This document shows positions 2,873-51,879 of a DNA stretch of 64,000 nucleotides, piece after piece. The translations under genes and the position numbers were made by a program. Origin of the DNA: a virus. Lineage: Duplodnaviria; Caudoviricetes. The notes under the pieces are model-generated. The model worked only from the letters and a program-made list of their open reading frames with translations, was not told the origin of the DNA and made no database searches. Location of the stretch: positions 192,001-256,000 of IMG/VR virus record IMGVR_UViG_3300013121_000005; one strand, written 5' to 3'. Position 1 is the stretch's first letter, and each line of letters opens with the position of its first letter.

Positions 2873-2893
2873 ATGTATGCGCGACCCCGCTTT

Positions 2894-2899
2894 GGTGTA
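2894..2899 (+). promoter_or_regulatory. GGTGTA upstream motif (putative phage promoter, class 1)
   Basis: 13 nt before ATG 2913; same hexamer lies 9-13 nt before 13 gene starts. Confidence 0.65.
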
Positions 2900-2912
2900 T
2901 AGTTTCCCCCTC

Positions 2913-5900: not shown

Positions 5901-6020
5901 AAAAAGGGGCTCATTGACCAGGTTATCGGGGAAGCAGCCGTTGGGGCTCTCAAGTTTGAGCGGTCTGAAAGTGACCTTCGGGATCTCTTCACGTCCTTGC
6001 GCGAGGACGTGAAGAAGTAA
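2913..6020 (+). CDS. SNF2-family (SF2) helicase/ATPase with an intein
   Basis: LRYYQ Q-motif, GDGTGLGK/T Walker A split by the intein, IFDEAT motif II, LTAT motif III, AGSEAINLQ and QLIGRMIRIG C-terminal motifs; start placed at ATG 2913. Confidence 0.9.
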   Translation: MSEDRAKQIYEHLLKVRASKTLELKPTPMFRQEIVGLDGQPQPFRLRYYQAQGIYHLLLVNRMVLGDGTGLGKCEVRGTMILSSEGLVPIESFAPTSFDTGRPEEGFYDLDREVSVWTGRRMAPVSRFYWSGKKPTNKLTTRNGYQIEGSLVHPVRVRDEHGEHWKELSTVREGDFLCVDRSEAPFPEREPAITFDTSTLAANARAYQYPTSLTPELATLLGYIVAEGHARKYGVTVTQFRDLNPEPHDEIRRLFQGVFGWEGNFNDLDHDTAIKVSSIGIREFLRAVGIGDELSRGKCVPEVIFRGTRESIRGFLSALIEAEGSVAEGGVEFSSASATLARQVQLLLLRFGVVSALSEKRIKGNDHIYWRLTFFSDSARIFHDQIGFRSDRKTEALRNSFSTTSNPNKDLIPHAAGPVGALKARILEATSRSGANENRKGSGIKQFGETFQSTLKHILNGYRNPSYAWLGKLLEVAYAVGVSATPEYAAVLALTERRFFYDPVVKVERGEAEVMDIEVDDPEHCYIANGLLSHNTLQAIGALCYLWERDPEIKPIVVCPKSAIRQWASEVEKFTHGVQTFVVSGSQEQRKATYKTWASAPSGPNDPKSILIVNYHLLVRDWDHGIVKHAPPEGAKHGTQPVAGRGLLDELTFRLPKVVTIFDEATAFKNPSTKTHQTCRFLSERSKRCWGLTATLLKNSLIEGFGIYKVIRPETFGSKTAFLNSYCVTELQRVKGGAKVPIIVGYRNLSDFRATIDKFFYGRPKHLVSDELPALTTREVLCELTPAEDRKYAEALNGILEVGSGDLKDYRETKELTSLIYCQEVVDSIALLGFDEEGLEGSFSGKSAKEQALLDLVSEEFADEKVIVYTRFEKLVTRLQKLLAAERIKSVRITGKEKDHERKKNQDAFQNLESNVKVVFITDAGSEAINLQAAVGMIFFDSPWSWGHYVQLIGRMIRIGSPHQNVLAVHLIAERPNKDSSKRETIDHKVIKKLRKKKGLIDQVIGEAAVGALKFERSESDLRDLFTSLREDVKK
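3132..4517 (+). mobile_element. Intein (462 aa) with LAGLIDADG homing endonuclease in the SNF2 Walker A
   Basis: Starts with Cys (CEVRGT), ends SHN followed by Thr; LLGYIVAEG and FLSALIEAEG motifs. Confidence 0.93.
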
Positions 6021-21490: not shown

Positions 21491-22231
21491 ATGAAGCTAG
21501 CTGCTGTCCAATTCGCCCCGGGCTTCAAAGAGATTGCTCGGAATACTAGCCGAATAGTTGAGCTTGCAACAAGAGCTGCAATGCAAGGGGCAAAATTGAT
21601 TGTCTTCCCTGAATTGGCCACTACAGGCTATTCGTTCATGGGTCCAGAGGAGGCAGCCCCATTTGCAGAGACCATTGGGGACTTTTCCAAGGGGAGTCAA
21701 TACTCTTTGCTCAGAGTCGCCGAGACCTTCAACGTAGCCATTGTGTGGGGCTTGGTCGGGAAGTCTGGGAACGGGTCACTTTACAACACTCAGATGTACG
21801 TAGATCCGAATGGTAGGTATGAGTCCTACTTCAAGATCAATCTATGGGGCAATGACTTTCTCTGGGCTTCAGAGGGAAGGGCTAACCCGCCAATCGTGCA
21901 TTGTGAAGTAACCAAGAAAAAGGTGGGGTTGCTCATTTGTCGAGACGTTCGGGACAAAGCAAGCGACGACTGGAAAAACTTCTACTCTCCAGGGGATGCA
22001 GATATTGTAGCCTTCTCCTCCAATTGGGGGGATGGTGGTTTCCCGGCAGTTTCTTGGGTGGACTTTGCTAAAGAGAACCGTACGGTTCTCGTCGTAGCTA
22101 ACCGCTACGGTCAAGAAACTTGTAATAACTTTGGCGAGGGTGGCGTGTGTGTCATTGAGCCCAAGGGTAAAGTCCATTGCCAAGGGCTTCAGTGGAATCA
22201 AGATTGCATTGTGTATGCGGAGACACCATGA
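21491..22231 (+). CDS. Carbon-nitrogen hydrolase (nitrilase superfamily)
   Basis: AAVQ, IVFPEL, YFK.NL and LLICRD give the E-K-C triad; VANRYG. Confidence 0.9.
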   Translation: MKLAAVQFAPGFKEIARNTSRIVELATRAAMQGAKLIVFPELATTGYSFMGPEEAAPFAETIGDFSKGSQYSLLRVAETFNVAIVWGLVGKSGNGSLYNTQMYVDPNGRYESYFKINLWGNDFLWASEGRANPPIVHCEVTKKKVGLLICRDVRDKASDDWKNFYSPGDADIVAFSSNWGDGGFPAVSWVDFAKENRTVLVVANRYGQETCNNFGEGGVCVIEPKGKVHCQGLQWNQDCIVYAETP

Positions 22232-22731
22232 GTAACCTTGTTCAGCGAGTTGTATCAAGATTTTCAAGAAGGTTGGCTGCTGCCTCCCCTCATGTGTGTT
22301 GGTACCGAGTAACCAAGTATAAGGGGGGTAATCGCTCAGTACTTGTATCGGTAGTAGCGGCTTGGAAGCCTACTTCTGACATCCCTATCAGAAAAGAGAC
22401 CCACAACAATTGGCTATCAGTGGAGTACTATGATGTCCCTGACGAGTTTTTCCAGCAGGTTGAGCGGGATTGCCGTCAGATTTCTGCGAAGGCCAAAGCA
22501 CTCGTGGAGGGGCTAGGGCTCAAGCTGCGGGAAAATCGGATGGAACCTCTCAAGAAGTGGGTAGAGAAATCTGTGAATTCCCTTACAGGTGACTATGTGA
22601 ACTTCTTCTGGTTGTCCGTTGAGGTCCCATTTGGGGCAGGTCAGAAGCAGAAGATCGAGGCTGTCACGTCAGCATTCGCAGAGCTGTCATCAGGTTTCTC
22701 TAATGTGATGCAAATTGAGCTAGAGAAGTGA
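22228..22731 (+). CDS. Tagged-class hypothetical protein (QRVVSRF leader)
   Basis: ATGA-coupled start MSNLVQRVVSRFSRRLAA. Confidence 0.65.
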   Translation: MSNLVQRVVSRFSRRLAAASPHVCWYRVTKYKGGNRSVLVSVVAAWKPTSDIPIRKETHNNWLSVEYYDVPDEFFQQVERDCRQISAKAKALVEGLGLKLRENRMEPLKKWVEKSVNSLTGDYVNFFWLSVEVPFGAGQKQKIEAVTSAFAELSSGFSNVMQIELEK

Positions 22732-22732
22732 T

Positions 22733-23725
22733 ATGGTGCCGCTCAAGGACCTAACGTTAGCGAAACGGGTAGCCTTCTTCTATCAAGATCGAATGGCTCG
22801 TCGGATCGCGGCTAGATTCTTGTTCTCAGCAAGTTTGTTGGACGGTCTGGTTCACCGGATGGATTCCTTGTTTGCGAACTATACGAACAAGGGAGCGGCT
22901 GAAGCAGCTAAGTGGTTCGAGGCGAATTTCCGTTTTGACATGTCCAAAACACCGCAAGGGCAGAAGGACCTCAAAAACAAGGCAGCCAAGTTCCATTGGT
23001 TTTTGCGGTCAGCGGCAGGTCTTGAGGCGTATGGTAAGGATGACCCAAACAATGAAGAGGGTTGGTCCCGAGCAGGCAAGGAAGCAGCTCGTATTTGGGA
23101 GCACGAGATCAAACCCTTGGTTGGGGATCTCGTAAGATACTTTACCGACGAAGGGGGTAAAATCGTCCCCAAGGAAGTGAAGGTTGGGGGAAACACCTAC
23201 CTCAACCTCGTCGGGTTCGACCAGAAGAAGCTGGGGCACTACGTTACGACGCTGGAGAGCCTCTGGGACGACCTGAAGGGTTGGCGCCGGAAAGCCCTTT
23301 CGGGGGGCCTCAAGGTCGTCTTGGCGAGCCCCAAGGAGTTTCATGGTACCGTGGGGGGCAAGTACAAGTCGTCGGAAGACCTCCTTCTCGTTCGTGCAAC
23401 CCCCCATGTTCTTAAACGAACGCAAGGTACCTACGGCGCCCTTGATTACATCCTCATCCATGAGCTAGGGCATCGCTACGAACGAAAGCAGAATCTTCCC
23501 GAGGACTTCGACAAATCCTACTGGTGGACCAGTACGTACAGCCGTAAAGAAGGGGAGAGCTTTGCAGAGCTGTTCGCTCTCGGGCACTTCAAGATCAAGG
23601 GGCAAGGCGCTGAAGCGACACAGGACCGTTTCGAGAAGCTCATGGCTGGACACGACAACATACCTCGGCCCGAATTGCCGGAGCATCTGCAAAAAGTCGT
23701 CCAATCAAAAGCTGGGGTGGTGTAG
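22733..23725 (+). CDS. Zincin-like metallopeptidase, tagged class
   Basis: IHELGHRY...STYS....ESFAELF; leader RRIAARF. Confidence 0.75.
   Translation: MVPLKDLTLAKRVAFFYQDRMARRIAARFLFSASLLDGLVHRMDSLFANYTNKGAAEAAKWFEANFRFDMSKTPQGQKDLKNKAAKFHWFLRSAAGLEAYGKDDPNNEEGWSRAGKEAARIWEHEIKPLVGDLVRYFTDEGGKIVPKEVKVGGNTYLNLVGFDQKKLGHYVTTLESLWDDLKGWRRKALSGGLKVVLASPKEFHGTVGGKYKSSEDLLLVRATPHVLKRTQGTYGALDYILIHELGHRYERKQNLPEDFDKSYWWTSTYSRKEGESFAELFALGHFKIKGQGAEATQDRFEKLMAGHDNIPRPELPEHLQKVVQSKAGVV
23719..23724 (+). promoter_or_regulatory. GGTGTA motif upstream of clpX
   Basis: 10 nt before ATG 23735; no SD in between. Confidence 0.65.
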
Positions 23726-23734
23726 TTGTAGAGT

Positions 23735-26077
23735 ATGAGCGTTCCCATCTGCTGCGGTTTTTGTAAGCGTCCTCGAAACGAGGTGAAGAACCTCATTGCG
23801 GCAAACCCCGATGATGGGCCTTTCATCTGTAACCGGTGCATCGAGACGGCTTTTAAGGAGCTAGAAGCTGGCGCTAAGCGAGTAGAAGGGCTTGGGCAGA
23901 AAAAGGAAGAGCCCCAACTCCGTGCTCCGAAAGAAATCAAGGCGTACCTCGATGATTTCGTGATCGGTCAGGACAAGGCCAAGCGAGCGATTGCGACAGC
24001 GGTTTACAATCACTTCAAGCGCCGAAAGTTGAAGGACGCAAAGCCGGAGATCGAAGTCAACGGCAAGAGAGAAGAGGTGGAGGTAGACAAGGCGAACATC
24101 CTTCTCCTTGGTCCCTCAGGTTGTCATCGTAAAGGCCAGCTTGTCCTGATGTACGATGGTACCTTCAAGGCTGTTGAAGATATCCAGATCGGCGACCTTC
24201 TCATGGGGCCGGACAGTACGCCCCGATCGGTGCTGGAGCTGCACCGGGGCGTGGAGAACATGGTCGAGGTCATCCCATTCAAAGGAGAACCGTGGGTGGT
24301 TAACGAGGGGCACATTCTCACGATTGTCCGGACAGCCTACAACGGGGGTTCCGGGTACCGCTCCGTCAACGAAGTTAAGGATGTGGCTTTGCGTGAATAC
24401 CTTGCTTGGTCCCGTACGCAGAAGGCTTGCCACAAGCTCTTCCGTGTTCCGGTAGACTTCAAGCCTATCGGGCCATTGCCGCTCGATCCGTACTTCCTTG
24501 GAGTGCTCCTCGGGGACGGCTCTCTTGCCGTATCTCCTCGTGTGACGACGGAAGACCCTGAGATTCTTCGTGAGTTGGAAGACCAGGCAAGTCGATTTGA
24601 ACTTCAAGTGGTGAAGTACCAATACGACGCAAACAAGTGCCCTTCCTACGCCCTCACCTCTGGTAAGCGTGGCGGGAGTGCAGGCGAGGATCGGGTGAAC
24701 CCCATTGCGATGCGCCTGGCTCAGCTCGACTTGCTCAATGTGGTCGGAGAGGAGAAGTTCATCCCCCACGTCTACAAAACAGCCTCACGCGAACACCGTT
24801 TGGCGATTATGGCAGGGCTCCTCGATACAGACGGGTCCTTAGATGAGGCGGGGGTGGGTTTCGACTTCGTGAACAAGTCAAAGCAGCTCGTTGAAGACCT
24901 GGCCTTTATCGCACGTAGTCTTGGTTTCGCTGCGTATCCCCAAGCATGCAAGAAAGGGTGCCAGACCGGCGCCGAGGGCATGTACTACCGGATGTTCATC
25001 TCGGGTGACGTATCGAAGATCCCAGTACGCATTCCTCGAAAGAAGGCTCCTGTCCGGGAATCTTCTAAGGATGTTCTTCGGACGGGATTTAAGACTCGCC
25101 CACTGCCCCCCGAGGAGTATTTTGGATTCGTTCTCGACAGGGATCATCGTTACCTACTCGATGACTTTACGGTGACCCACAACACAGGTAAGACCCACAT
25201 TGCCCGTACGATCGCTCGCTTGCTGAATGTGCCCTTTTTCATCGGGGATGCAACTCGATTGACTCAGGCAGGGTACGTAGGGGATGACGTAGAAACCCTT
25301 CTTCAAGGTCTTGTGCAAAACGCAGGGGGGGACGTGGAGCGCGCCCAATGGGGCATCGTGTTCCTCGATGAGGTAGACAAGATCGCTCGCTCAGGGGGTC
25401 GCGATCGGGCAGGGTACCGAGACGTGACAGGTGAGGGAGTCCAACAGTCTCTCCTAAAGCTCCTCGAAGGTTCGAGGGTCAATGTCCCACGGGCCGGTAA
25501 GGCTGGGATGATGACTGCTTACGATGCAGTGGACACCACAAACATCCTCTTTATCTGCGCTGGTTCTTTCGCTGGGATTGAGCCAATCGTAGAAAAGCGA
25601 GTCAACAGCAAGGCTTCTCTTGGTTTCGGCTCGGCCTCTAGGGAGAAGTTCGACCCTACACAGACGTACTTGTCAGTGACCCCAGATGACTTGTTGAACT
25701 TCGGGATCATTCCTGAAATGCTTGGGCGCCTTCAAGTGGTTACCACTACGGTGGAGTTGGGGGAGGATGACCTGGTACGTGTGCTTCTTGAGCCTCGAAA
25801 CAGCATTGTCAAGCAATTTCAAGCGCTTTTCCAGCAGGATGGGATCTCTTTGGATTTTGAACCCGATGCGCTCCGAGCCGTAGCCAGGGCAGCGAAGAAA
25901 CGGAACACAGGAGCTAGGGCTCTACGGTCCATTGTAGAGGCAGCCCTGGAACAGCTCATGTTCGAGTTACCAGGAGACAAGCGAGTCCGACGAGTGTTGG
26001 TAACAGAGCAGACCATCGATACTGGAGTGGCTGTTTTGACCATGGCGGAGGAAGCTGAACATAGCCAAGAGGCATGA
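23735..26077 (+). CDS. clpX: ClpX ATP-dependent unfoldase with an intein
   Basis: CGFC...ICNRC zinc domain, VIGQ..AK, GPSG/TGKT, DATRLTQAGYVGDDVE, DEVDK, RDVTGEGVQQ, LGF loop, TGARALR. Confidence 0.95.
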   Translation: MSVPICCGFCKRPRNEVKNLIAANPDDGPFICNRCIETAFKELEAGAKRVEGLGQKKEEPQLRAPKEIKAYLDDFVIGQDKAKRAIATAVYNHFKRRKLKDAKPEIEVNGKREEVEVDKANILLLGPSGCHRKGQLVLMYDGTFKAVEDIQIGDLLMGPDSTPRSVLELHRGVENMVEVIPFKGEPWVVNEGHILTIVRTAYNGGSGYRSVNEVKDVALREYLAWSRTQKACHKLFRVPVDFKPIGPLPLDPYFLGVLLGDGSLAVSPRVTTEDPEILRELEDQASRFELQVVKYQYDANKCPSYALTSGKRGGSAGEDRVNPIAMRLAQLDLLNVVGEEKFIPHVYKTASREHRLAIMAGLLDTDGSLDEAGVGFDFVNKSKQLVEDLAFIARSLGFAAYPQACKKGCQTGAEGMYYRMFISGDVSKIPVRIPRKKAPVRESSKDVLRTGFKTRPLPPEEYFGFVLDRDHRYLLDDFTVTHNTGKTHIARTIARLLNVPFFIGDATRLTQAGYVGDDVETLLQGLVQNAGGDVERAQWGIVFLDEVDKIARSGGRDRAGYRDVTGEGVQQSLLKLLEGSRVNVPRAGKAGMMTAYDAVDTTNILFICAGSFAGIEPIVEKRVNSKASLGFGSASREKFDPTQTYLSVTPDDLLNFGIIPEMLGRLQVVTTTVELGEDDLVRVLLEPRNSIVKQFQALFQQDGISLDFEPDALRAVARAAKKRNTGARALRSIVEAALEQLMFELPGDKRVRRVLVTEQTIDTGVAVLTMAEEAEHSQEA
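24122..25183 (+). mobile_element. Intein (354 aa) with LAGLIDADG endonuclease in the ClpX Walker A
   Basis: Starts CHRKG, ends VTHN followed by Thr; LGVLLGDG and MAGLLDTDG motifs. Confidence 0.93.
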
Positions 26078-26104
26078 TGATCTGTTGATGATGAAGGTCC
26101 TGTG

Positions 26105-27316
26105 ATGGACCTTCATCTTATCCGGAATATCATTGCTAGGTTTAGGATCTCCAAGTCTATGGGAGATCCTAAGGAATTGGTACACGAGTATGAGCAAATG
26201 CTCAACAAGTTTACCCTTCCGGAAGACCAGGTAGCTTCGGCCAAAGCTGTGATGCAAAGGCTGATTTCCAATGGGCTGGGACAAGCGCAAGGTATCACCG
26301 ACCCAGGGTTTGATGCTGCTCACACTACATCCCTGCTAGCTAGTGTGAAGATTGAGCGAGGTTGGCCCTACGTTTACGACCCTGGCAGCAAGCTGTTTCT
26401 GGCTCTACTACAGTCCTATACGTTACCTGCGCCGCTTCGGAAAAAGATTGAGATTGCGTCTCGGCTATACCTAAAGGGTATGCGCCCAAGGTACAAAGCA
26501 AAAAGGCCCGGCCCAGAAAGGGACCTGGAATACCTCCTCTCCTATGAGAAAGTCATGGGGGTATGGCGAGAGCACCTTGCTTACGCTAAAGAGGCCATTG
26601 CTAAGGGCAAAGAGCACGCAACGGAAGGCGAAGGGGCCACAAAGCTCAATGTAGGGCCGTTTACCGTTGTCAACACGGGAGGTTTCTCTGAAGAGCAGAT
26701 GGGCTCGGTTGTTGAGGTTGTCAGGAAGGCTCATAGCCTTTTGCAAAGCTCAGGCTTCAATGAAGTGTGTTACGGTGAAATTCAAGTCACCAACACAATT
26801 CACAAGGGGTCAGTCTGGGCTTTCTACATGGTCACTAAGGACGAGTTGTTTGTTCGAGCCAACCTCAAACCCACCGTCGACATAGTTCACAACGTCCTGC
26901 ATGAATTAGGGCATCGCTACGAGCACAAGTTCCTCAAGGGGGGTGAAGCCCCCCTTTGGAGGCTCTACCATACGATGGAGTCTCAAGAGAGAACAAGTCT
27001 TAAGGATGCCAAATTTCCTGACCCTGGTACAACCTTGGTAAACAAGGGTCGTACCTTCATTGTCACCCATACTACTGCGGACTTCCGTAATGGATACGTA
27101 GTCCACCTCAAGATGGAAGGTGGGACTGCGAAGGTACCCCTAAGCTCGTTTTGGGCTCTCAAAGGTGAGAATCTCAAGGACCCAAGTCTTGGGTTTGTTA
27201 CCCCTTACGCGAAAAAGAGCCCTAACGAGAACTTTGCGGAGATGTTTGCCTTCTATTGTATGGGCAAACTGTCAGGGTCGCAGAAGGAAGCCTTTGAGCA
27301 AGCTATTGCGAAGTAG
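26105..27316 (+). CDS. Zincin-like metallopeptidase, tagged class
   Basis: LHELGHRY...TPYA....ENFAEMF; leader RNIIARF. Confidence 0.75.
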   Translation: MDLHLIRNIIARFRISKSMGDPKELVHEYEQMLNKFTLPEDQVASAKAVMQRLISNGLGQAQGITDPGFDAAHTTSLLASVKIERGWPYVYDPGSKLFLALLQSYTLPAPLRKKIEIASRLYLKGMRPRYKAKRPGPERDLEYLLSYEKVMGVWREHLAYAKEAIAKGKEHATEGEGATKLNVGPFTVVNTGGFSEEQMGSVVEVVRKAHSLLQSSGFNEVCYGEIQVTNTIHKGSVWAFYMVTKDELFVRANLKPTVDIVHNVLHELGHRYEHKFLKGGEAPLWRLYHTMESQERTSLKDAKFPDPGTTLVNKGRTFIVTHTTADFRNGYVVHLKMEGGTAKVPLSSFWALKGENLKDPSLGFVTPYAKKSPNENFAEMFAFYCMGKLSGSQKEAFEQAIAK

Positions 27317-27352
27317 AGGGTTAGATTCTTTTGATAGGGAGGTCTGAGAGAG

Positions 27353-28678
27353 ATGCTGACTCCCAACCCCCCTCAAGTTGGTTCCAATCGAGAAACCTTT
27401 AAAGAGCGTTATGCTCGGTTGCTTCTCTCAATGTCTCTTCAGGAGGCCAAAGATATCCTAGGGTTCCCCCCTGGATACTCTCCGAGCCCTGACGAGATTG
27501 CCAAGGCTTATCGACGCAAGGCTTTGGAGAACCATCCGGATCGTGGGGGCAGTCACGAAAAGATGGTGGAGGTCAATGTCGCCAAGGACCTTCTGGAGGG
27601 TAAGGGGCGTGCAACTTGGACCCCTGAGCCTGCACCTCGTCGAGAGCGACCAAAGCCAACTCCAGTTGAATACGACGCAACCCTAAAAGGGGCCTCGTTT
27701 GAGGCCGCATGGGGTTCCGCAGGTGTCCCAGCCTCGGTAGAGTGGAAGTTTGTGAGCATCCCTGAGTGGTATTGGCCTAGCTCGAATCACCCAGGTCATC
27801 GAGTCTGGTGCCTCTATGGCCAGAACGAGCAGAAGCACGTCTTCCTTGCCTTCAAGGAGCGCGGAGAGAGTGCCGGGGGCGTCTGGCTGGATGACCAGGG
27901 GAAGCAGGCACCCCCTGGGACCGGCAAGTTCACGAAGATCGAGCAGGACTGGCAGTCGAGCCTCATCGAGATCCCGATCGCTCAGAACGTCGCCAAGATC
28001 GCGCCCAAGTACCTGAAAGAGGTTGGGACGGCGTGGGCGGATGGGGCCAAGCCGAAGCCCCCAAGGAAGTTTGTTGCGTGGCCCGGTGGTAAGCCAACAG
28101 AACAGATTATCAGCAAGATTCCCCGTTCAGGTGGAGCCGCTCTAAAGGACATCCTCGTGGGCACTGGCCTTCTGACGGACGAGGACCCCGCAGTGGCAGG
28201 CCGCAAGAGCGTGGTGGAAATCTTCACGAAGTACAGCAAAGAACGCTTCGAGCGGGCGAAGAAGTTGAAGGCCGAGGGTAAGCTCAAGGGGCTCAACAAT
28301 GCCCACCAGTACGACTTCTTCGTCCGGGTCAATGGGAAGACCGAGAAGCTCGAAGACGACACTATTTCCAAGATGGAGCGGTCCTTCATCCCATGGGTTC
28401 TAAGCTGGGAGATCAGCGAAGGGGCCCCGAAAAATCTCACCCGGATGCGAGGAGGTCGGCTCAAGTACGGCCCAGCAGACGCTATTCGGGAACTAGCTAA
28501 TTGCCTTACGACAGAACCCTCTTGGCTTCATATCGCTCTAGAGAAAGCTATCGAGGAGTATGAGGTCCCAGCTAAGGTGGCATACAGGGAACCTCTTCGA
28601 GCCTTTCATGACGCTCTGATCACCCGCAACGTGGTTGCGCGAGTTCTCTCGACCCGCAAGAGCAAGGTGAAGGTATAG
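27353..28678 (+). CDS. J-domain (DnaJ-like) protein, tagged class
   Basis: ILG...EIAKAYRRKALENHPDRGG; C-terminal RNVVARV. Confidence 0.8.
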   Translation: MLTPNPPQVGSNRETFKERYARLLLSMSLQEAKDILGFPPGYSPSPDEIAKAYRRKALENHPDRGGSHEKMVEVNVAKDLLEGKGRATWTPEPAPRRERPKPTPVEYDATLKGASFEAAWGSAGVPASVEWKFVSIPEWYWPSSNHPGHRVWCLYGQNEQKHVFLAFKERGESAGGVWLDDQGKQAPPGTGKFTKIEQDWQSSLIEIPIAQNVAKIAPKYLKEVGTAWADGAKPKPPRKFVAWPGGKPTEQIISKIPRSGGAALKDILVGTGLLTDEDPAVAGRKSVVEIFTKYSKERFERAKKLKAEGKLKGLNNAHQYDFFVRVNGKTEKLEDDTISKMERSFIPWVLSWEISEGAPKNLTRMRGGRLKYGPADAIRELANCLTTEPSWLHIALEKAIEEYEVPAKVAYREPLRAFHDALITRNVVARVLSTRKSKVKV

Positions 28679-28679
28679 G

Positions 28680-30101
28680 ATGGCTTCGCCAGTCAGGAGC
28701 AGAGATTTGCTTCGGGATTATGCCCGTACCTTAGTAGCTCTGGAGTTCTCAACCCCAGAGGCTCTTAAGGAGTACCTTCACGATCATCCGAAAGCTGACA
28801 AGAGCAAGCACACGGTCAAAAAGGATGAGGAAGGTCATCACGAAGAGGAGCCCAAGAAGAGTTGGAAGGAACGGCTCAAGGGTCTCAGTGAGAAAGCTTC
28901 GAGCCTTGTCCGAAATGCCCCCAAGGCAGTCAAGCAATTTATCGAGGATGATTCATTCCGTCGAAAGACGCTTATGGAGGCTCACAAAGCCCTAACTGAG
29001 GCGCCAGAGAAGATTGCGAAGAATGCCCTCAATACAGTCAAGCACGAAGTCAAAGAGTTCAAAGAGGCTGGACAAGGCATCGCCGCTGTGATGAGGGGGC
29101 AGAAGATGACCCCTCATCAAAAGAAAGCGCTTAAAACCGTAGCAACCCACATGGCAATTAGTGTTACTGCGGCGGCTTTGACGGCCTCAGGGCCTCTTGC
29201 TGCTGCGGGTATGGTGGGTAAGGGTCTCGTAAAACACACAGCTATGAAAGCTGTCTCCAATTTGCTTGGTCACACCCATATCCTCGAAGAGCTTGGGCAT
29301 ATTGGGCATGGCGTGAAGCACCTTATGGAGAAGCTTGCTGTAGAGGGTAAAGAGGCTGATCCAGAGGAAGTCCTTGGCAACCTTGTGCTAGCTGCTGTCG
29401 CCAAGGAACTTAAGGGTCTCAGTGACGAGGACATCAAGAAAGCTCTAGAGGGTGTGGAGGAGAAGACCATGGAGGAGAAGAGTATGGAGAAGAGTATGGA
29501 GAAGAAGGCTTCTCCTCTTCAAGAGTTCAAGGATGCTCTGATTGTCCGAAATGTCACAGCTCGATTCATGACTCGTGGGATGGAGCACCCATCGGAGGAA
29601 GCTAAGAAGAAGTACCTCCATGAGCACCCTGGGGCAGACCCCAAGAACCACAAGGTCAAGAAGAACCCAGATAGCACTGCTTCAAGTGGGATTGGCTCAG
29701 AGTCTACAAAGGCAGACTCTAGGTCGAAAGACCTTACAAAGAACCTCGACAGTATGAAGGCCCTCAAGCGCAAGGTAGACAATGCAGAGCCTTCCGCGAA
29801 GAAGAAGTTCGACCAAACCTACACCAAACTGTATGAGGGTGGGGAATCGTCAGCAAAAGCTGCTGAGAGGTTGGTCAAGAAGTTCGAGGATGATGACAGG
29901 AAAGATGTCCAAATCGCGGTTGAGCTTCTTTCAGACTCAGTGCGCCAATGGGAGCGTAACAAGTTTGATCACCATAAGCAGACTGCGGAGTTTACCCACA
30001 CCCACGAAAAACTTCGTCAAGCTGAACAAACCTTTGGCTACGCTATGAAGGTCAATGACTATATTGAGCTGCTTAACAAGACTCTCCAGGGAGATCGGTA
30101 A
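28680..30101 (+). CDS. Multi-module tagged-class protein with two YLHxHPxAD repeats
   Basis: EFSTPEALKEYLHDHPKAD and KYLHEHPGAD; internal RNVTARF. Confidence 0.7.
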   Translation: MASPVRSRDLLRDYARTLVALEFSTPEALKEYLHDHPKADKSKHTVKKDEEGHHEEEPKKSWKERLKGLSEKASSLVRNAPKAVKQFIEDDSFRRKTLMEAHKALTEAPEKIAKNALNTVKHEVKEFKEAGQGIAAVMRGQKMTPHQKKALKTVATHMAISVTAAALTASGPLAAAGMVGKGLVKHTAMKAVSNLLGHTHILEELGHIGHGVKHLMEKLAVEGKEADPEEVLGNLVLAAVAKELKGLSDEDIKKALEGVEEKTMEEKSMEKSMEKKASPLQEFKDALIVRNVTARFMTRGMEHPSEEAKKKYLHEHPGADPKNHKVKKNPDSTASSGIGSESTKADSRSKDLTKNLDSMKALKRKVDNAEPSAKKKFDQTYTKLYEGGESSAKAAERLVKKFEDDDRKDVQIAVELLSDSVRQWERNKFDHHKQTAEFTHTHEKLRQAEQTFGYAMKVNDYIELLNKTLQGDR

Positions 30102-31717
30102 TGCCTGCTAAAGTCGATGAGTTGTTCAAGGAAGTCAAGAAAGACAACCCGTCGTACACAGATGAGCGGGCGTGGGCAACGGCTTGGTCGATCTACTGCA
30201 AGCATGTAGAGCCTGGATCAGACCATTGCTCTCGGCCTCCTAGCGAGTACTTGAAGGGCAAGAATGCGGCTGGGGCTTTTGCTAGGGCTTTGCTGGCTCG
30301 TGAGTTTGCAACTCCTGAAGCTCTGAAGGAGTACCTTCATGAGCACCCAAAGGCAGATAAGAGCAAGCACACTGTCAAAAAAGAGGAGGAGGGCAAAGGG
30401 GGTAAGAAAGAAGAGCCCAAAGCCCCAGCTAAGCCAAAAGGTCTCGATTTCGGAGACACCTCGAAGCTAGGTAAAGATGTTACCCAACCTGTCAAAGACC
30501 CTGATAAGCTGTTTGAAGAAGCTGCGAAAGCCCATGACCATCAGCTAGATTGGCTAAATCGAGGGAAAGGTCTTGACAAGGCGATTGGGGGCAAAGTCAT
30601 TCGTGCGGACAAGGGCGACACGATTGACTTTGATAAACCAGGGCCGATCATCCTCATTGGCCCGATGAAGAAGCAGGATCGTTCCAAAGAGAAGGTCGAA
30701 GCTGACTTTGGAGGGGACTGGTCTCGTCTGGGGGATATTGTCCGAGCGTCCGTGGCAGTAGACTCTTTCGATCAAGTGGAAGAGGTTCTAGCCCAACTAA
30801 AGAAGACTGGTTTGAAGCTCGCTCGTCAACCTAAGGATCGTTTTGACACTCCAACAAGCGCAGGTTACCGCGACGTAATGATCAATGTCGTGTACCCTAA
30901 TGGGCATGTGGGAGAGCTTCAACTCCACCTCAAGGGGGTCCTCAAGGCGAAGGATGCAGGGCACAAGTTCTACGAGGAAGTTCGCTCCATTGAGGGGAAG
31001 GCCAAGAAGGAAGGGCGAGATACCCTTACGGAGGAAGAACTCAAGGTCATCACGGAGGCTAACGACAAGATGAAAGCTCTCTACGATGAAGCTTGGGCTT
31101 CAGCTTCTAAGGCTAAGGGCAAGGGCAGCAAGGGTAGGAAAACCAAAGAAGCTGCATCCGGACCCACAAAGTATGACTACAATGGGCTACCTGCATATTG
31201 GGACAAAAATCGGTTCCCAATGGTCGTAACCCCTAAGGGCGAGAAGCCAATCTACGATATCGAGAAGTTCTTCCGAGAAGCAGATGAGGTTACGGAAGCG
31301 GAGTTCAAAGCTCTCAAAGATCGTAGTAAGCCAGAGAAGAAGTCCCCTGCTGGGAAGAAGAAGAGTGCAGTTATGAATGCCCTGATGGCTCGTAAAGTGG
31401 TGGCTCGGTTCTTGGCAGCGGATAGCCATAATCCAGACCCACTTTCTTTCAATGCTTTCCTTTCGGAGTTTAGGCAAGGAGAGAAGTCAGGCAAGGACTT
31501 GGCTTCAGCAGAAGATGCTGAAGCCAAGCTAGAGCTAGCTCAAGAGAAGGTATCTCAGGCTGCTACGGATCTACTTGAGCTTGCTCGACGCATCGACGCG
31601 ATTGCTCAACGAGGCCCTCTTGGGGTAAACGAAACGAAGCTCTCCGCTAAGTTGAGTGGAATCCTGTCTACACTCTTTTACCAGGCAGGAGTTGCTAAGG
31701 GACTTGGAAAGGCATGA
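30101..31717 (+). CDS. Multi-module protein with a RelA/SpoT-like nucleotidyltransferase domain, tagged class
   Basis: MKK.DRS.EK...GDIVRAS...KDRF...GYRD...ELQLH; third YLHEHPKAD copy; RKVVARF. Confidence 0.7.
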   Translation: MPAKVDELFKEVKKDNPSYTDERAWATAWSIYCKHVEPGSDHCSRPPSEYLKGKNAAGAFARALLAREFATPEALKEYLHEHPKADKSKHTVKKEEEGKGGKKEEPKAPAKPKGLDFGDTSKLGKDVTQPVKDPDKLFEEAAKAHDHQLDWLNRGKGLDKAIGGKVIRADKGDTIDFDKPGPIILIGPMKKQDRSKEKVEADFGGDWSRLGDIVRASVAVDSFDQVEEVLAQLKKTGLKLARQPKDRFDTPTSAGYRDVMINVVYPNGHVGELQLHLKGVLKAKDAGHKFYEEVRSIEGKAKKEGRDTLTEEELKVITEANDKMKALYDEAWASASKAKGKGSKGRKTKEAASGPTKYDYNGLPAYWDKNRFPMVVTPKGEKPIYDIEKFFREADEVTEAEFKALKDRSKPEKKSPAGKKKSAVMNALMARKVVARFLAADSHNPDPLSFNAFLSEFRQGEKSGKDLASAEDAEAKLELAQEKVSQAATDLLELARRIDAIAQRGPLGVNETKLSAKLSGILSTLFYQAGVAKGLGKA

Positions 31718-31980
31718 GTCTTTCCCTCATCCGCCAAGTAGTTCGTCGGTTCATGGCGTTCAAGTACGAACCCAAGGAGACGAAGCAACACAAGGTAGAA
31801 AGGCTCTCCAAAGCTATTCGGGAAGAGACTGGAATTTCTCGGGGGCAAGCAGAAGCTATTGCTGATGCTTACATACGTGGACGAGAGATCGAACGATTAG
31901 CTATCCAGAAGGGTTGGCCCCTTGCGGATGGGATTGTGACCGGTCCTGATGGGGCGTTTGAACTGTCTAAGTCACTTTGA
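31714..31980 (+). CDS. Small tagged-class protein (RQVVRRF leader)
   Basis: ATGA-coupled; 88 aa. Confidence 0.65.
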   Translation: MSLSLIRQVVRRFMAFKYEPKETKQHKVERLSKAIREETGISRGQAEAIADAYIRGREIERLAIQKGWPLADGIVTGPDGAFELSKSL

Positions 31981-31991
31981 ACCAGAAAGAC

Positions 31992-32225
31992 ATGAATATG
32001 AACAAGCAACCTCCAGAGTACATCATGCAGTTCTTCACCTTCGAGCACTTGCCTGAGCACCTCAAGGTAGTGTCGCGCCAATTTGCGGAATTGGCAGAAC
32101 GTATGGTGAGCACCTTGCCGCGTAACCCAGAGCGTACGGTTGCTCTTCGTAAGCTCTTGGAAAGCAAAGACGCGGCTGTGAGGGCTGTCCTTTCAAAAGA
32201 GGTTTCCGAATCCGAAAGTAAGTAG
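31992..32225 (+). CDS. Small helical-hairpin phage protein, possibly Acb2/Tad1-hairpin-like
   Basis: FF.FEHLPEHL...LP.NPERTVALRKLLESKD.AVRA. Confidence 0.5.
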   Translation: MNMNKQPPEYIMQFFTFEHLPEHLKVVSRQFAELAERMVSTLPRNPERTVALRKLLESKDAAVRAVLSKEVSESESK

Positions 32226-32235
32226 CTGGAGTAGC

Positions 32236-32583
32236 TTACCCCAGCTTGCCTTCCCAGTAGCGGGCGAACAGAGCCGCCAAACCATCCGCTACCCGGTTCG
32301 TGAACTCATCCTGTTGACGAGTCATCACGTCCAGACTGTCGTCCCCGAGCCAGACCTCCAGGTGCCGCCCCTCCCAGCCTGGCTCTGGCTCCAGCTTGAC
32401 CAAGGGGGAGACAGCAACCCGTTGAAGCGGGTTGCTGTGCTTGCCTACCAAGGTGACGAAGAACCGATCCTTGACCCACCTGATCTCGGTGGCTGTCTCA
32501 GCGAAGAAGTCTTCTAGGACGAGTTGAGCTTCTTGGCGTGTAGGCTTTTTCCCACCCCACCGCACATACCGATCATAAGCCAT
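32236..32583 (-). CDS. Hypothetical protein
   Basis: Start MAYDRY lies 9 nt after GGTGTA. Confidence 0.6.
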   Translation of the reverse strand: MAYDRYVRWGGKKPTRQEAQLVLEDFFAETATEIRWVKDRFFVTLVGKHSNPLQRVAVSPLVKLEPEPGWEGRHLEVWLGDDSLDVMTRQQDEFTNRVADGLAALFARYWEGKLG

Positions 32584-32606
32584 ACCTTCAAATACACCGT
32601 TGGGGA

Positions 32607-33284
32607 TCACTCCTCTTCACTGTCGAGAGTGATCCCCTCATCGGTTACCTTGGCTAAATCCACCAAGTTCGCAGACTTTTTCTTGGCTGAGGGCAGATAG
32701 TTCTTCCGATGGACTTGGCAAGGTCCGAGCTTCTCTATGGCTTTGAGATGAGCTGGAGTCCCATACCCAACATTTTCTCCTAGGCCATACCCAGGGTACC
32801 TCAGAGCCAGCTCTCTCATATACTGATCGTGAGTGAACTTCCCAATGACGCTGGCAGCCATGACAGCGGGGACGATTCCGTCTGCTTTAGGGAAGTTGAT
32901 ATGGTCAATCCCAGGAAGAGTGACATTACCATCTAGGATGATAAGGGCATCAGGGTACCTTTCCTGAAGGTTAAGGACCACGGTTCTGTAGCAGCGGTTC
33001 AAAGCATTTATGACCCCTAAGTCTATCTCCTCTGGGTGCGCCATTTCAATCGCATAGGGGACGATTTCGCGAAGTCGGTAGAACAACTCTTCGTGTTTCT
33101 TCTTTCCGATGTTCTTGGAATCATCAAGCCCTTTCAAAGGGGGCCAGTTAGGAGGTACAGCTACAGCACATACAACTAAGGGTCCGGCCAGACTACCGTA
33201 TCCGCATTCATCTGCTCCAATAATCTTAGACCGGCCCTTAGCCAATTCTTTCCAGTCAGGGATCTTCAGAATGTCTTTACTCAA
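32607..33284 (-). CDS. rnhB: Ribonuclease HII
   Basis: GADECGYGSLAGP, DDSK, LDG, KAD...AASV.GK, GYGT..H. Confidence 0.93.
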   Translation of the reverse strand: MSKDILKIPDWKELAKGRSKIIGADECGYGSLAGPLVVCAVAVPPNWPPLKGLDDSKNIGKKKHEELFYRLREIVPYAIEMAHPEEIDLGVINALNRCYRTVVLNLQERYPDALIILDGNVTLPGIDHINFPKADGIVPAVMAASVIGKFTHDQYMRELALRYPGYGLGENVGYGTPAHLKAIEKLGPCQVHRKNYLPSAKKKSANLVDLAKVTDEGITLDSEEE

Positions 33285-33700
33285 GCCAATTTACCCCCAT
33301 GAAGCTTAGCTCTGCCCGAATTGTAGGCCATTTTTACCGCAACTGCTTTGGCTACATCCACTCCGTGGGCTTCAGCCTTGTCTAGGATGCGAATGAGTTC
33401 GTCGGCAATCTCTTCCTCCCCATTGGTCAATGGGGGAAGACCAAGCGCAGCCATCTTTTCAGCCTTGTCGCAGGGGTTGTTGAGGGTACCATTGCGAAAA
33501 GCCTCCCAGAATTCCGATGCTTCCCCATGTTGATTAGCCGTGAAGGTAGCAGCTCGAATGAGCTGCCCAAGAGGCCCCTCCCATTGAGCATCGGTTAGGT
33601 CCTTCTTCATCTGGTCTCTGAATCCCTTGTTCTTTGCATTTTCAGCAATGTGATCACGTAGGGTGTTGAGCAATTGGAGAGCATCGGGGGTTAGTTCCAT
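33281..33700 (-). CDS. MazG-like NTP pyrophosphohydrolase
   Basis: EASE.WEA...EEEIADELIRILD...KMAYN..R. Confidence 0.7.
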   Translation of the reverse strand: MELTPDALQLLNTLRDHIAENAKNKGFRDQMKKDLTDAQWEGPLGQLIRAATFTANQHGEASEFWEAFRNGTLNNPCDKAEKMAALGLPPLTNGEEEIADELIRILDKAEAHGVDVAKAVAVKMAYNSGRAKLHGGKLA

Positions 33701-33711
33701 AGGTAACCTTG

Positions 33712-33739
33712 TACACCGCCCCTTTAGGTTTCTTCTTAT
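33712..33739. promoter_or_regulatory. Divergent promoter region: GGTGTA (minus strand) and CTTAT (plus strand)
   Basis: TACACC 33712-33717 lies 11 nt from ATG 33700; CTTAT 33735-33739 lies 14 nt from ATG 33754. Confidence 0.6.
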
Positions 33740-33753
33740 CTATCTTAGCGGGT

Positions 33754-34911
33754 ATGAGGTATAGAGTAGCTCGGCTTATCCGGAAAGTTGTGACTAGGTA
33801 CGTAGTTGCTAAGATGTCCATTCCGGAAGCAGAGAAGATTCTTGGGGTTCGACCTGGAGCGTCGGCTGAAGAGATCAAGGCTGCGCACAGAAAAAAGGTC
33901 CTAGAGCTGCATCCGGACTTGAATCGGGACCGTGATACCACGTCTGAAATGGCTCTAGCCAACGCAGCAAAGGACGTTCTGGAAGGACGCTCAGCCCCTT
34001 CGTATAGGGATGATGGGGGTGACGAAGAGTACTCTCCTCCCCGCACTCGTTACGAGCCACCAGAACCAAAGGTTGTTACGTTTGAGGAGGCTTACTCAAC
34101 AGCAGGTGTCCCTTCTGGAGTTGAGTGGCTGTTTGTCACGGATATGCAACGAGGTACCGGGTACTCCTCGGATGAATTCACTCGGTCTACCAATGGTCGT
34201 GTTGCTTACGGCCGCACAGGCACAAAGCATGTGTTCGTAGGTATGTGCCGTAAAGTGTACAAAGAACACTACATTGGAGGGCGTAAAGACGACGACCTGT
34301 GGTCCGTGGTCTCGTTTGAGTACCCGATCTCTGGGGATGAGGGGAAGACTCCTGCTTGGCTCTACGGTAACGTGGTGAAAACCCTTAAGGCTTCTGGGTG
34401 CGACGCCAAATTCAACTCCAAGGTCCATGACCTCAAGGGGAAGGGTTGGCATCCCAAGGACAAGGGGATGGGCTCGCTTGGGTCCACGATGTCGATCAAG
34501 CATTGGCTCGTCAACGCCGAGGAAGTAGCTGCTGACGATGAAGCGGTCGCGACCCGGAAGCAGGTCGTCGAGCTGAAAACAACTGAAGACCGTCTCTATG
34601 GGGACGAGAAACCAAAGCCAGGGTTCTTTAGAAACCCTGGCTCCGAGTGGGACACTACCTACTACAAGCTCACGCTCATCATCAACGCCAAGGAATTCGA
34701 CTTGTCGAAAGACGACTTCGCCTCTTTCATGAAGATTCGTGGGTTGTACGCTAGAGTCTTCGGGGACTACATCTATGGCTCTAAGTCCAAGATGCTCACG
34801 AGGCTAAGGGACGGTAAGAAAATCCTGGCATGGATGGCAGCGAAGTTTACCGATCTACCGCAGCAAGCCCGAGATGCGTTACTCGCTGCTTCTGCTCAGA
34901 TGAAAGGTTGA
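33754..34911 (+). CDS. J-domain protein, paralog of 27353, tagged class
   Basis: RKVVTRY leader; LHPD; shared blocks AGVP..VEW.FV, KHVF, RK.VVE, K.LTR.R.G. Confidence 0.8.
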   Translation: MRYRVARLIRKVVTRYVVAKMSIPEAEKILGVRPGASAEEIKAAHRKKVLELHPDLNRDRDTTSEMALANAAKDVLEGRSAPSYRDDGGDEEYSPPRTRYEPPEPKVVTFEEAYSTAGVPSGVEWLFVTDMQRGTGYSSDEFTRSTNGRVAYGRTGTKHVFVGMCRKVYKEHYIGGRKDDDLWSVVSFEYPISGDEGKTPAWLYGNVVKTLKASGCDAKFNSKVHDLKGKGWHPKDKGMGSLGSTMSIKHWLVNAEEVAADDEAVATRKQVVELKTTEDRLYGDEKPKPGFFRNPGSEWDTTYYKLTLIINAKEFDLSKDDFASFMKIRGLYARVFGDYIYGSKSKMLTRLRDGKKILAWMAAKFTDLPQQARDALLAASAQMKG

Positions 34912-47955: not shown

Positions 47956-47979
47956 AGAGGGGTGGTGTATTGCCCCCTT

Positions 47980-48453
47980 ATGAATGATGCCCAAACTTCG
48001 GACGCCCACTTCTCCCGTGAGGTGTTCTTGGTCGAAACGGCTCGGAGATACTGGGAAGCTCGAAGACAAGAACAGCTTCTTGGGGATTCACTTGAGGACC
48101 TAGGGGTCAATTTTGACGACCGAAAGGCAGCTAATCGCCTTATCGAGGCGTTGGCCACCAACAGTGACGAAAAGGCCGTTGAAGTTGCACGCCGCTTTCT
48201 AAGTGTCTTAGATGAGGCTACGTCTACTTCCCAGGGGCCCAACGTAGATTCGGTCTTCCAACAGATTTACACAGTCGTTCAGGAAGAACGTACAACCTTC
48301 GTTCAGGACATTGCAAGCAAACTAGGCTTGGCAATCCCAACCGTTCGTCGCAACCTGCTTGCGATGAGTACCCATGTTTACCTTAAGGGGAATGAAGTTC
48401 AAGACCTCGGGGATGGGTCCTCACGGCCTCGATGGACACAGGGAGGGAGATGA
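47980..48453 (+). CDS. HTH DNA-binding protein
   Basis: VQDIASKLGLAIPTVRRNL HTH pattern; GGTGTA 10 nt upstream. Confidence 0.6.
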   Translation: MNDAQTSDAHFSREVFLVETARRYWEARRQEQLLGDSLEDLGVNFDDRKAANRLIEALATNSDEKAVEVARRFLSVLDEATSTSQGPNVDSVFQQIYTVVQEERTTFVQDIASKLGLAIPTVRRNLLAMSTHVYLKGNEVQDLGDGSSRPRWTQGGR

Positions 48454-50107: not shown

Positions 50108-50145
50108 TAGAGCTGGCTCCGAAAGGTCTTTCGGTGCCAGCTCTA
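50108..50145. terminator. Hairpin between convergent genes
   Basis: tagagctggc-t-ccgaaag / ctttcgg-t-gccagctcta. Confidence 0.7.
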
Positions 50146-51879
50146 CTGTTGTTGATACCGTCGAGCGACCTGCTCTTCGAGCATCGCGGTCTTCAGGACA
50201 GACCGGAAGCTCTCTACTTGGTCTCGGCTGATGTTGTATTCCAGGATGTAATGGGCGAAGACTTCGGCGAACGCCTCGTCCACGTTGCTCGCCCCATACG
50301 TTGAGACGGGGGCGACGGGGGCCGGGTTCTTCTCGTAGCTCTCCATCCATTCGAGCGTGGCCGGATCGTTCTTGAGCTTCTCCTTGGCTCGCTCGTTGTG
50401 CTTTTGGACGGCGAAGTCTATGAAGATGAGGGCCTCGCTCACAATCTGAGAGATAAGCTGACGAGCCTCAGTGAGCCAGGTGTCTTTCCCTTCGGGCCTG
50501 AGGAGGGTGAAGTCCTCGAAGTGCTCGGTGAGCTTGGCCTTGGTCTTGTACACGTCGTCCTTGAGGCGATCGACTTCGGACCCGAGGTCCTTGTCCACGT
50601 CGAGGGACGTGACGGCATCGATGATGTCGTTTCCAAAGACCCAGCCGTCCTTCCCCACGCCATCCCGGGCGAGGGGGGTCAAGTTGGCGAGGTTGTAGTT
50701 GACGACTCGGGTGAGCCGCTGCTCAGCACGGTCCTGGGCTCGGAGCACTTTCCGCTTTGAGTCGTCGATGTCCGCGTCCTTGAACATTCGGACATCGACG
50801 GTTGGCTTCGAGGGACGAGGCTTTGTGTGCGTCTTGACCAGGGCCTCGAACTTCGCACGTTGGGACGACCCCATCTGCTTGAACCAGTAGCGATGCCCAA
50901 GCTCGTGGACCATCAGCTCCACGATGAACACTCCGGGACGGTTGAAGATCGTCACCGTGTCTCGGCCGATCTCGTACCAACCTCCAACACCCCCACCTGT
51001 ATTCTGGTTTACCCCTCCACACTCAGTGCATTGGATGAAGACATTTCCGTACCAAGCCTTCTCGAACCCCTTGCTTTTCAGCTTGGAGTAGGCTTCAGAT
51101 AGGTACCGCACGTACTTCTTGATGAGATCCGTGTCAACGGTCCGGTCATCCACAATGACCTTCATCCCGTGAAGGTCAAACTCCCGGAACCCCCCAGCCT
51201 CTTGAATCGTCTGCTCTGAGTAGTTCGCCGCGAGCATCTCGTAGATGCGGTCGACCCACTTGTTGGGGTCCCAGTCAAGTTTGCTTCGCTTGGCCAAGCG
51301 GGCAGCAGCTTTACTGAAGCCTACTCGATGCAGAAAGTCATACTTGACCTGGTAGACATCATCATCTACCAGGGCTTTCAACTCCTCTGGCTTTGCAGCT
51401 CTAAGTGTTTTCTCGACAAGACGTTCAATTCCTGCCTTGTCGACAGTCCATTCCGACTTGAAGAGGTCCCCCACAGTTGAGGTAACTTCCTTCATCTTAT
51501 CGAAGACGTCTTGGTAAGCTCTCCATGTAAGGTACCCTTTTGGGTCCTTGAAGTTGGTATACCCAAGGTCTAAGCCATCGTACTTATTTGCAATGGCCTC
51601 TACATACCCCCTGGCCATTTCAACCCTATTCTTGATGGAATCTAGAGCCGTGTCGAGCGTTACCAGATTCGCGAACTCTTTCCAGAAACGATCAAAGAAG
51701 GGGAGTACCTTGTCGTGGAGAATCCACTTCCAGTAGGGCGGGTTGTCACTACTCCTGAGGGGTTCTTTGAGGATAGCCTTAAGTGTATCTTTCTGGGCTT
51801 TGAACCACTTCGCAGAAAGATAAGCTGCGACAACCTGCCTTCGGTAACGGGTTGCGACTCTTAGGGTAAGAGATTCCAC
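50143..51879 (-). CDS. Zincin-like metallopeptidase, tagged at both ends
   Basis: VHELGHRY...STYG....EAFAEVF; LRVATRY at the N-terminus, KTA...QVARRY at the C-terminus. Confidence 0.75.
   Translation of the reverse strand: MESLTLRVATRYRRQVVAAYLSAKWFKAQKDTLKAILKEPLRSSDNPPYWKWILHDKVLPFFDRFWKEFANLVTLDTALDSIKNRVEMARGYVEAIANKYDGLDLGYTNFKDPKGYLTWRAYQDVFDKMKEVTSTVGDLFKSEWTVDKAGIERLVEKTLRAAKPEELKALVDDDVYQVKYDFLHRVGFSKAAARLAKRSKLDWDPNKWVDRIYEMLAANYSEQTIQEAGGFREFDLHGMKVIVDDRTVDTDLIKKYVRYLSEAYSKLKSKGFEKAWYGNVFIQCTECGGVNQNTGGGVGGWYEIGRDTVTIFNRPGVFIVELMVHELGHRYWFKQMGSSQRAKFEALVKTHTKPRPSKPTVDVRMFKDADIDDSKRKVLRAQDRAEQRLTRVVNYNLANLTPLARDGVGKDGWVFGNDIIDAVTSLDVDKDLGSEVDRLKDDVYKTKAKLTEHFEDFTLLRPEGKDTWLTEARQLISQIVSEALIFIDFAVQKHNERAKEKLKNDPATLEWMESYEKNPAPVAPVSTYGASNVDEAFAEVFAHYILEYNISRDQVESFRSVLKTAMLEEQVARRYQQQ

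Follow-up and report, generated by a model that had tools for sequence, protein, structure and literature searches.

A 64,000-nucleotide stretch of an uncultured huge phage (here called the window; bases 192001-256000 of IMG/VR record IMGVR_UViG_3300013121_000005) contains a series of mostly dissimilar open reading frames (ORFs) whose products share a tag of about ten residues. The tag has the motif [LI]-x-x-R-[VI]-[AV]-[AST]-R-[FY], is helical and amphipathic, and occurs in about twenty proteins of this phage. Judging from sequence comparisons, it is a real, portable and clade-wide element that works from either terminus and has been grafted onto unrelated protein families. Its best-supported use would be that of an address label which incorporates the carrier proteins into the phage head. 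The support for this use is circumstantial, and we estimate its probability at about 0.45. The window belongs to a single virus record of 363,484 bp, with 53% G+C and an estimated completeness of ~76%.

The tag is enriched at protein termini

The consensus of 58 terminal copies from five genomes reads hydrophobic-hydrophobic-x-R-V-[AV]-[AST]-R-[FY]-[L...]. Because the search pattern itself required the second Arg and the aromatic residue, the fact that they never vary is not an independent result. The residue spacing fits an amphipathic helix, with the two arginines one helical turn apart. The strict pattern has 7 matches against 0.37 in shuffled proteins and the five-residue core has 17 against 4.0, while the core [VI][VAIT][ASTRK]R[FY] matches 20 times in the 465 called genes against 4.9 in shuffled proteins. 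Of the 20 matches, 13 fall within the first 30 residues, where 0.66 would be expected (Poisson P 4e-13). An initial annotation of the window, made from the letters alone, had proposed a shared motif that sits at termini or module boundaries of otherwise unrelated ORFs, and these counts confirm that the motif is real. Among unselected ORFs, which are mostly off-frame, 3 of 1613 give a match. The N-terminal enrichment is repeated in two relatives, G1 (7 matches, 0.41 expected) and G2 (6 matches, 0.7 expected).

Most copies of the tag lie 2-8 residues from the initiator Met or at the extreme C-terminus. The codons used for R, V and A differ freely among copies, which indicates that selection acts on the peptide and not on the DNA. 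No published description of the motif was found, although no literature search was aimed at the motif itself.

Nine of the ORFs that the initial annotation had named as examples carry the motif at the sites it gave. Its example in ORF 1084 is not supported: the motif profile does not score it, and Asp occupies the position of the small residue. The looser forms that it had listed in ORFs 27353 and 54221 correspond to the helix leading into the J domain, and the real tags of the orthologues lie upstream of this helix. The motif had also been placed in the region 22228-34911; at least eight further carriers are found elsewhere in the genome.

Tag sites in the window

The block that holds these tagged genes comprises, in order, a CN-hydrolase gene, ORF 22228, the zincin-like ORF 22733, clpX with its intein, the zincin-like ORF 26105, the J-domain ORF 27353 and ORFs 28680, 30101 and 31714. 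A further J-domain gene, ORF 33754, is on the same strand as the block, beyond three minus-strand genes. Four tags of this region are close to the N-terminus on the plus strand: at residues 4-13 of ORF 22228-22731 (22237-22266; 167 amino acids (aa), no family match), residues 21-30 of the zincin-like ORF 22733-23725 (22793-22822), residues 5-14 of the gluzincin-like ORF 26105-27316 (26117-26146) and residues 5-14 of the small ORF 31714-31980 (31726-31755; 88 aa). The same holds for J-domain ORF 33754-34911, with the tag at residues 8-17 (33775-33804, plus strand) and a degenerate copy before it. ORF 22733 likewise has a degenerate second copy just upstream of its tag, and its orthologues keep both copies.

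In four ORFs of the window the tag is C-terminal or internal. The J-domain ORF 27353-28678 carries it at residues 423-432 of 441 (28619-28648, plus strand). In ORF 28680-30101 it is internal, at residues 288-297 (29541-29570, plus strand). This site is a fusion junction, since G1 encodes the downstream part of the protein as a gene of its own, with the tag at its start. ORF 30101-31717 has an internal tag at residues 429-438 (31385-31414, plus strand). The zincin-like ORF 50143-51879, on the minus strand, is tagged at both ends, with an N-terminal copy at 51841-51870 and a C-terminal copy at 50152-50181; the G2 orthologue lacks the latter. An internal match at residues 71-80 of ORF 47962-48453 (48172-48201, plus strand) is doubtful: the upstream hydrophobic pair is missing and no orthologue of the ORF was found. 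The earlier proposal that the motif sits at termini or module boundaries agrees with these sites, which are termini or fusion junctions on unrelated proteins.

A His/Pro/Lys-rich module of ~25 residues directly follows the tag in ORF 28680 (twice) and ORF 30101 (window 28743-30382). It also occurs after the tag in relatives (L220:2169-3050, minus strand; L221:5963-7315) and has no family match.

Carrier families

Outside the window, tags are found on a CCA-adding/poly(A) polymerase-HD enzyme (genome 9440), the genes at genome 11630, 19274, 20023, 22054 and 263149, a 129-aa protein (genome 78342), a type IB topoisomerase (genome 82720), a 962-aa protein with the tag at residue 72 (genome 88081) and two further zincins (genome 270138 and 310297). 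Most of the small carriers receive no name from Pfam or PHROGs. The carriers had been described as unrelated, and this is partly true: the six zincins are paralogues, as are the J proteins, and the other carriers share no similarity beyond the tag.

The types of cargo suggested at the outset, namely metallopeptidases, J domains and a RelA/SpoT-like domain, are all recovered, the last as a weak match. The zincin family has 266 detectable homologues, most of which begin with the tag, followed by a conserved segment. By eye, roughly 15-20 of the 120 listed homologues have no tag and start directly at the domain. In the gluzincin-like ORF 26105, residues H266, E267, H270, E375 and E379 are invariant in 61 sequences. 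Its AF2 model has an overall predicted local distance difference test score (pLDDT) of 93, and the fold matches only gluzincins, all weakly (E 0.08-0.2). The tag is modelled as a helix (residues 3-15, pLDDT 62-69), followed by a loop and then the domain at ~97. Although the Pfam match is below the cut-off, the HExxH motif and downstream Glu ligand on the predicted zincin fold mark this cargo family as putative gluzincin metallopeptidases.

The J domains of the carriers pass the Pfam cut-off. Five J-domain proteins are encoded in the genome (219452, 225835, 241257, 247847 and 358825), and none in four tag-poor relatives. ORF 30101 contains a weak Tas1/RelA-SpoT-like stretch at residues 179-285 (Tas1 match, E 1.4e-3).

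The tag is portable and clade-wide

Orthologues at 50-80% identity retain the tag, and the tags at termini are conserved over 30-70% sequence divergence. The end of the protein on which the tag is found can change. While the J protein of ORF 27353 is tagged at the C-terminus, its orthologues in G1 and G2 have 2-3 tandem N-terminal copies. The 536-kb genome G22 has 8 C-terminal tags, against 0.48 expected, plus 3 N-terminal ones, and 13 genes of G20 have an N-terminal tag. In G25 (402 kb, with terminal repeats) and G18 the topoisomerase is the only tagged gene; the CCA enzyme of G25 has a variant of the tag.

The clade is defined by the type IB topoisomerase and counts at least 63 distinct huge phages. 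At the N-terminus of nearly all of these topoisomerases, the motif precedes a Lys-rich stretch. When the peptide was searched for as a DNA pattern, 29 relatives gave 181 matches, compared with 43 for the reversed control. The tag is nearly invariant across the clade, and because a K-for-R variant has spread in no genome, co-variation gave no handle on the protein that reads the tag. A separable C-terminal tag, [TS]-R-[FY]-[DES], is present in 16 copies in this genome and 1 in G20.

Tagged genes in the head module

The head module was located by PHROGs, Pfam and fold search. It contains an intein-bearing large terminase, a portal, an HK97-like protease, a Q-rich scaffold-like protein and a 290-aa HK97-type capsid protein. 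In genome coordinates, the gene order runs from tagged 78342 through gene 78728, the large terminase (79359) and the tagged type IB topoisomerase (82720) to three decoration-like paralogues, the portal (86260), tagged 88081 and gene 91021, followed by the prohead protease (92958), the scaffold-like protein (94708) and the major capsid protein (96778). Three carriers are therefore part of the terminase-portal-protease module: 78342 is two genes upstream of the large terminase, the topoisomerase is in the terminase-portal interval and 88081 comes just after the portal. Genes beside the portal usually encode head-internal proteins. Of the 63 distinct relatives, 35 have the topoisomerase no more than 3 kb away from head-module genes, and in 28 of these the portal is the neighbour.

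In some relatives, tagged proteins are fused into a giant protein next to the portal. The portal-following ORF of G22 (1798 aa, genome 143971-149367; L172-L173) combines the CCA enzyme with the topoisomerase, and the equivalent ORF of G25 (1706 aa, genome 345363-350483; L142) joins a domain like gene 19274, the topoisomerase and the N-segment of gene 88081. Tags are found at the junctions in both. The portal-adjacent protein of G2 contains a module that corresponds to residues 41-296 of window ORF 28680. These fusions indicate an exchange of modules between the giant protein next to the portal and tagged genes that stand alone.

In the proposed mechanism, the tag would be a portable amphipathic docking helix of about ten residues that serves as an address label for the assembling head. 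Its binding partner would probably be a conserved component of the head, and a variable set of enzymes would in this way accompany the DNA; the carriers would be part of the virion and be injected. The modules may originally have been joined in the portal-adjacent giant protein, as in some relatives, and then split in this phage, with each gene keeping its tag. Our best guess for the reader of the tag is the major capsid protein (76-97% identical across the genomes compared), because its degree of conservation is close to that of the tag. Other candidates are the scaffold N-domain, the portal and gene 91021. Roughly 36 proteins are common to all seven genomes compared.

The three decoration-like paralogues are in tandem, with ~175 aa each (genome 83730-85787; L002:13730-15787, in the topoisomerase-portal interval), and all tag-rich relatives keep three. 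The model of gene 85266 resembles the capsid decoration or cement proteins of phages BB1, TW1 and T1 and phi29 gp8.5. As these are external proteins, the paralogues are unlikely to be readers of the tag. The Gln-rich scaffold-like protein (genome 94708-95997; L003:6708-7997) ends in a peptide, L-S-x-L-W-x-S-x-P-[DN]-V-x-x-[VA]-F, that is found in all seven genomes. This peptide may be the capsid-binding end of the protein, and its sequence is unrelated to the tag.

Weighing head loading against other uses

The initial annotation had predicted a portable signal that loads proteins into the virion, by analogy with the short N-terminal capsid-targeting sequence of T4. Capsid loading draws support from the three carriers in the head module and the portal-adjacent fusions. 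A T4-like N-terminal leader is only partly supported: 13 genes of this phage have the tag near the N-terminus, but tags in G22 are mostly C-terminal, the tag shifts between termini in orthologues and no conserved cleavage motif is seen.

Several observations weigh against head loading. The tagged genes of the window and ClpX form a tight same-strand block 3' of replication genes, with an SNF2 helicase containing an intein, DnaB, a primase-like protein, a family A polymerase and a Ycf46-like ATPase encoded on its 5' side, a layout that does not resemble a late operon. At least 11 of 15 relatives have tagged genes on the flanks of clpX, an arrangement of which head loading gives no account. The prohead protease lacks a conserved tag, with a resembling stretch at its C-terminus in close relatives only. 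The residues after the tag were compared in 21 carriers and in 120 zincin homologues and contain no conserved position or cleavage motif, and C-terminal tags cannot serve as cleaved leaders of the T4 type. Cultured relatives are also lacking; megablast and tblastn against cultured phages found no close deposited relative, and the sole match in the phage collection is an uncultured record.

The main rival, which we consider unlikely, is a tag directed to ClpX, either tethering the carrier to the ClpX zinc-finger N-domain or acting as a terminal degron. The reader would be the RKH-less ClpX of the phage or the host enzyme, and the outcome would be timed degradation with host ClpP or zincins docked on the unfoldase. 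The phage ClpX (23735-26077, plus strand) is itself untagged, has a zinc-finger N-domain and a LAGLIDADG intein, and is encoded between two tagged zincin genes. The flanking of clpX noted above is direct and involves tagged genes of changing families, in this window as in the relatives. In addition, the terminal position of the tag fits engagement by an unfoldase and tandem tags would fit a dimeric domain. The L-R-V-[AV] part of the tag resembles the SspB tail. It is also similar to the L-K-x-h zinc-domain-binding consensus (PMC7226468), and the phage ClpX keeps its zinc finger, GYVG and ClpP-docking loop while having lost RKH, the ClpX loop that sets substrate choice (PMC7112951). Tag use does not, however, track the presence of a phage ClpX: 17 of 29 relatives have a clpX match and 12 have none, five of the latter (G014, G022, G027, G029 and G030) with a clear excess of the tag pattern. 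The tag-rich G22, rated 100% complete, has no clpX and 13 pattern matches, against 0 in the control. The topoisomerase retains its tag in G25 and G18, which also lack clpX, so only host ClpX could read the tag there. A clpP gene was not found in this record, it is difficult to see why a topoisomerase found throughout the clade would keep a degron, and the fusions into the portal-adjacent protein are left without a reason. A complex prediction with two ClpX zinc-finger domains and the tagged N-terminus of 78342 scored 0.02, which is no answer and was used neither for nor against binding. The two ideas can be combined into unfoldase-driven packaging, in which the RKH-less ClpX would recognise the tag and hand or thread the enzymes to the head or the portal-adjacent giant protein. 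Both hot-spots of tagged genes, in the head module and in the ClpX island, would then be explained, with clpX-less phages using the host enzyme; we consider this combined reading very improbable.

It is also doubtful that the label serves a hub outside the head, or the mutual assembly of tagged proteins, with the carriers gathering in a cytoplasmic body such as a replication or takeover complex. A position-independent, sometimes tandem, short amphipathic helix would suit this role, the window cluster adjoins replication genes and the genome also has a second tag system, C-terminal and separable from the first. The fusions show that the carriers act together and not where they do so. The placement of the most conserved carriers in the head module would nevertheless be unexplained, and no hub candidate came out of a presence/absence screen against two tag-poor relatives. 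This screen selected genes that are present in tag-rich G2, G20 and G22 and absent from G25 and G18, and returned 13, including methylases, an HNH protein, a primase-like zinc-finger protein, a DUF7487 protein and the decoration-like gene 83730. It is weak because G25 and G18 keep the topoisomerase tag. It is very unlikely that the motif is a processing site at which a phage protease cuts polyproteins and which persists at the N-termini of genes that have split off. The genome encodes an HK97-like prohead protease and six zincin paralogues, and tags do occur where modules join, both in the giant proteins next to the portal and within ORFs 28680 and 30101. Cutting would, however, be futile at the copies located 2-8 residues from the initiator Met or at the extreme C-terminus, the terminal tags stay conserved over 30-70% divergence and the flanks of the motif have no fixed residue. 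Least probable is a host chaperone or membrane signal, that is, a DnaK-binding segment reached through the phage J proteins, a membrane amphipathic helix or a Tat-like signal. DnaK binds a hydrophobic core flanked by basic residues, a pattern that the tag fits, and the J-domain proteins are missing from the four tag-poor relatives. Three of the J proteins carry the tag themselves, however, and several tag-rich records have no J domain, although these records are incomplete. The fixed R, small, R and aromatic residues favour specific protein recognition over lipid binding. A Tat signal (S/T-R-R-x-F-L-K followed by an h-region and a cleavage site) does not match, as the arginines of the tag are four apart and the tag can be C-terminal; the tag is not followed by a hydrophobic h-region, as would be expected for a Tat signal or membrane helix, and in most carriers the next residues are polar or charged.

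Comparison with known systems

The capsid-targeting sequence (CTS) of phage T4 loads diverse internal proteins as well as foreign proteins (PMC3012670, PMC7411985). Like the CTS of IPI-III and Alt, the tag is a short, portable, terminal peptide found on diverse proteins with variable, host-directed cargo, and here the link to head-assembly genes is genetic only. It has no sequence similarity to the CTS. As far as its sequence indicates, the tag differs from the T4 leader in acting from either end, with no recognisable protease site after it. Many of its carriers are large enzymes of 250-960 aa, including the topoisomerase and the CCA-adding enzyme.

Encapsulin cargo-loading peptides provide another possible parallel. 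They are short, are found at either end, remain uncut and dock unrelated cargo inside an HK97-fold shell, and in both cases a strongly conserved shell protein is paired with a strongly conserved tag. Their motif is a different one, and the shell considered here is a DNA-filled head with a 290-aa capsid protein and a separate scaffold.

MuF-linked polymorphic toxins of temperate phages include peptidase and RelA/SpoT-like modules that are delivered via the virion and shuffled between phages. In giant phages of the SPN3US type, ejection proteins are likewise head-internal and encoded near the portal and protease genes. Unlike the ten-residue label, these systems use propeptides of 110-130 residues (PMC7411985) or a folded MuF domain.

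The peptides recognised by ClpX (the SspB tail XBR, the UmuD tether and degrons; PMC7226468) are also terminal, combine Leu with basic and small hydrophobic residues, and work at either end, and a zinc-finger ClpX is encoded among the tagged genes. The tag is longer than these peptides, has a helical pattern with an invariant second Arg and aromatic residue, and is present in phages without clpX.

Possible significance

If head loading is correct, a clade of huge phages would deliver a large and changeable enzyme kit together with its DNA, consisting of a type IB topoisomerase, a CCA-adding enzyme, Hsp70 co-chaperones, peptidases and an alarmone-synthetase-like protein. Delivery would depend on a ten-residue label that works from either end and may remain uncut. 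This would provide a simple sequence rule for predicting virion cargo in uncultured phages, a view of effector sets as they are reshuffled among free genes and a giant protein encoded beside the portal, and a compact tag for the packaging of foreign proteins. If the reader is instead ClpX, the tag would represent a phage-wide degron or tether system, the first to be linked to an unfoldase that the phage itself encodes. In either case, ~4% of the proteome of uncultured phages becomes open to testing through the motif.

Other features of the genome

A GGTGTA element, often in the form TGGTGTA[AG], occurs throughout the genome, for example at window positions 23719 (upstream of clpX), 13737 and 17674. 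It is found within 150 nt upstream of 51 genes, in roughly half of them ~15-17 nt before the start codon, and is ~4.6-fold enriched in intergenic upstream DNA. The element may be similar to a promoter -10 element that gives very short leaders. It is common upstream of genes and does not separate gene classes by expression timing.

Three LAGLIDADG inteins are encoded in this one genome, in the SNF2 helicase (window 2820-6020), ClpX (window 23735-26077) and the large terminase (genome 79359-82718). The phage ClpX family (loci L211-L224) keeps GYVG and the [LIM]GF ClpP-docking loop, with RKH replaced by a variable Gly-rich loop, and some of its members, including the copy in the window, contain an intein.

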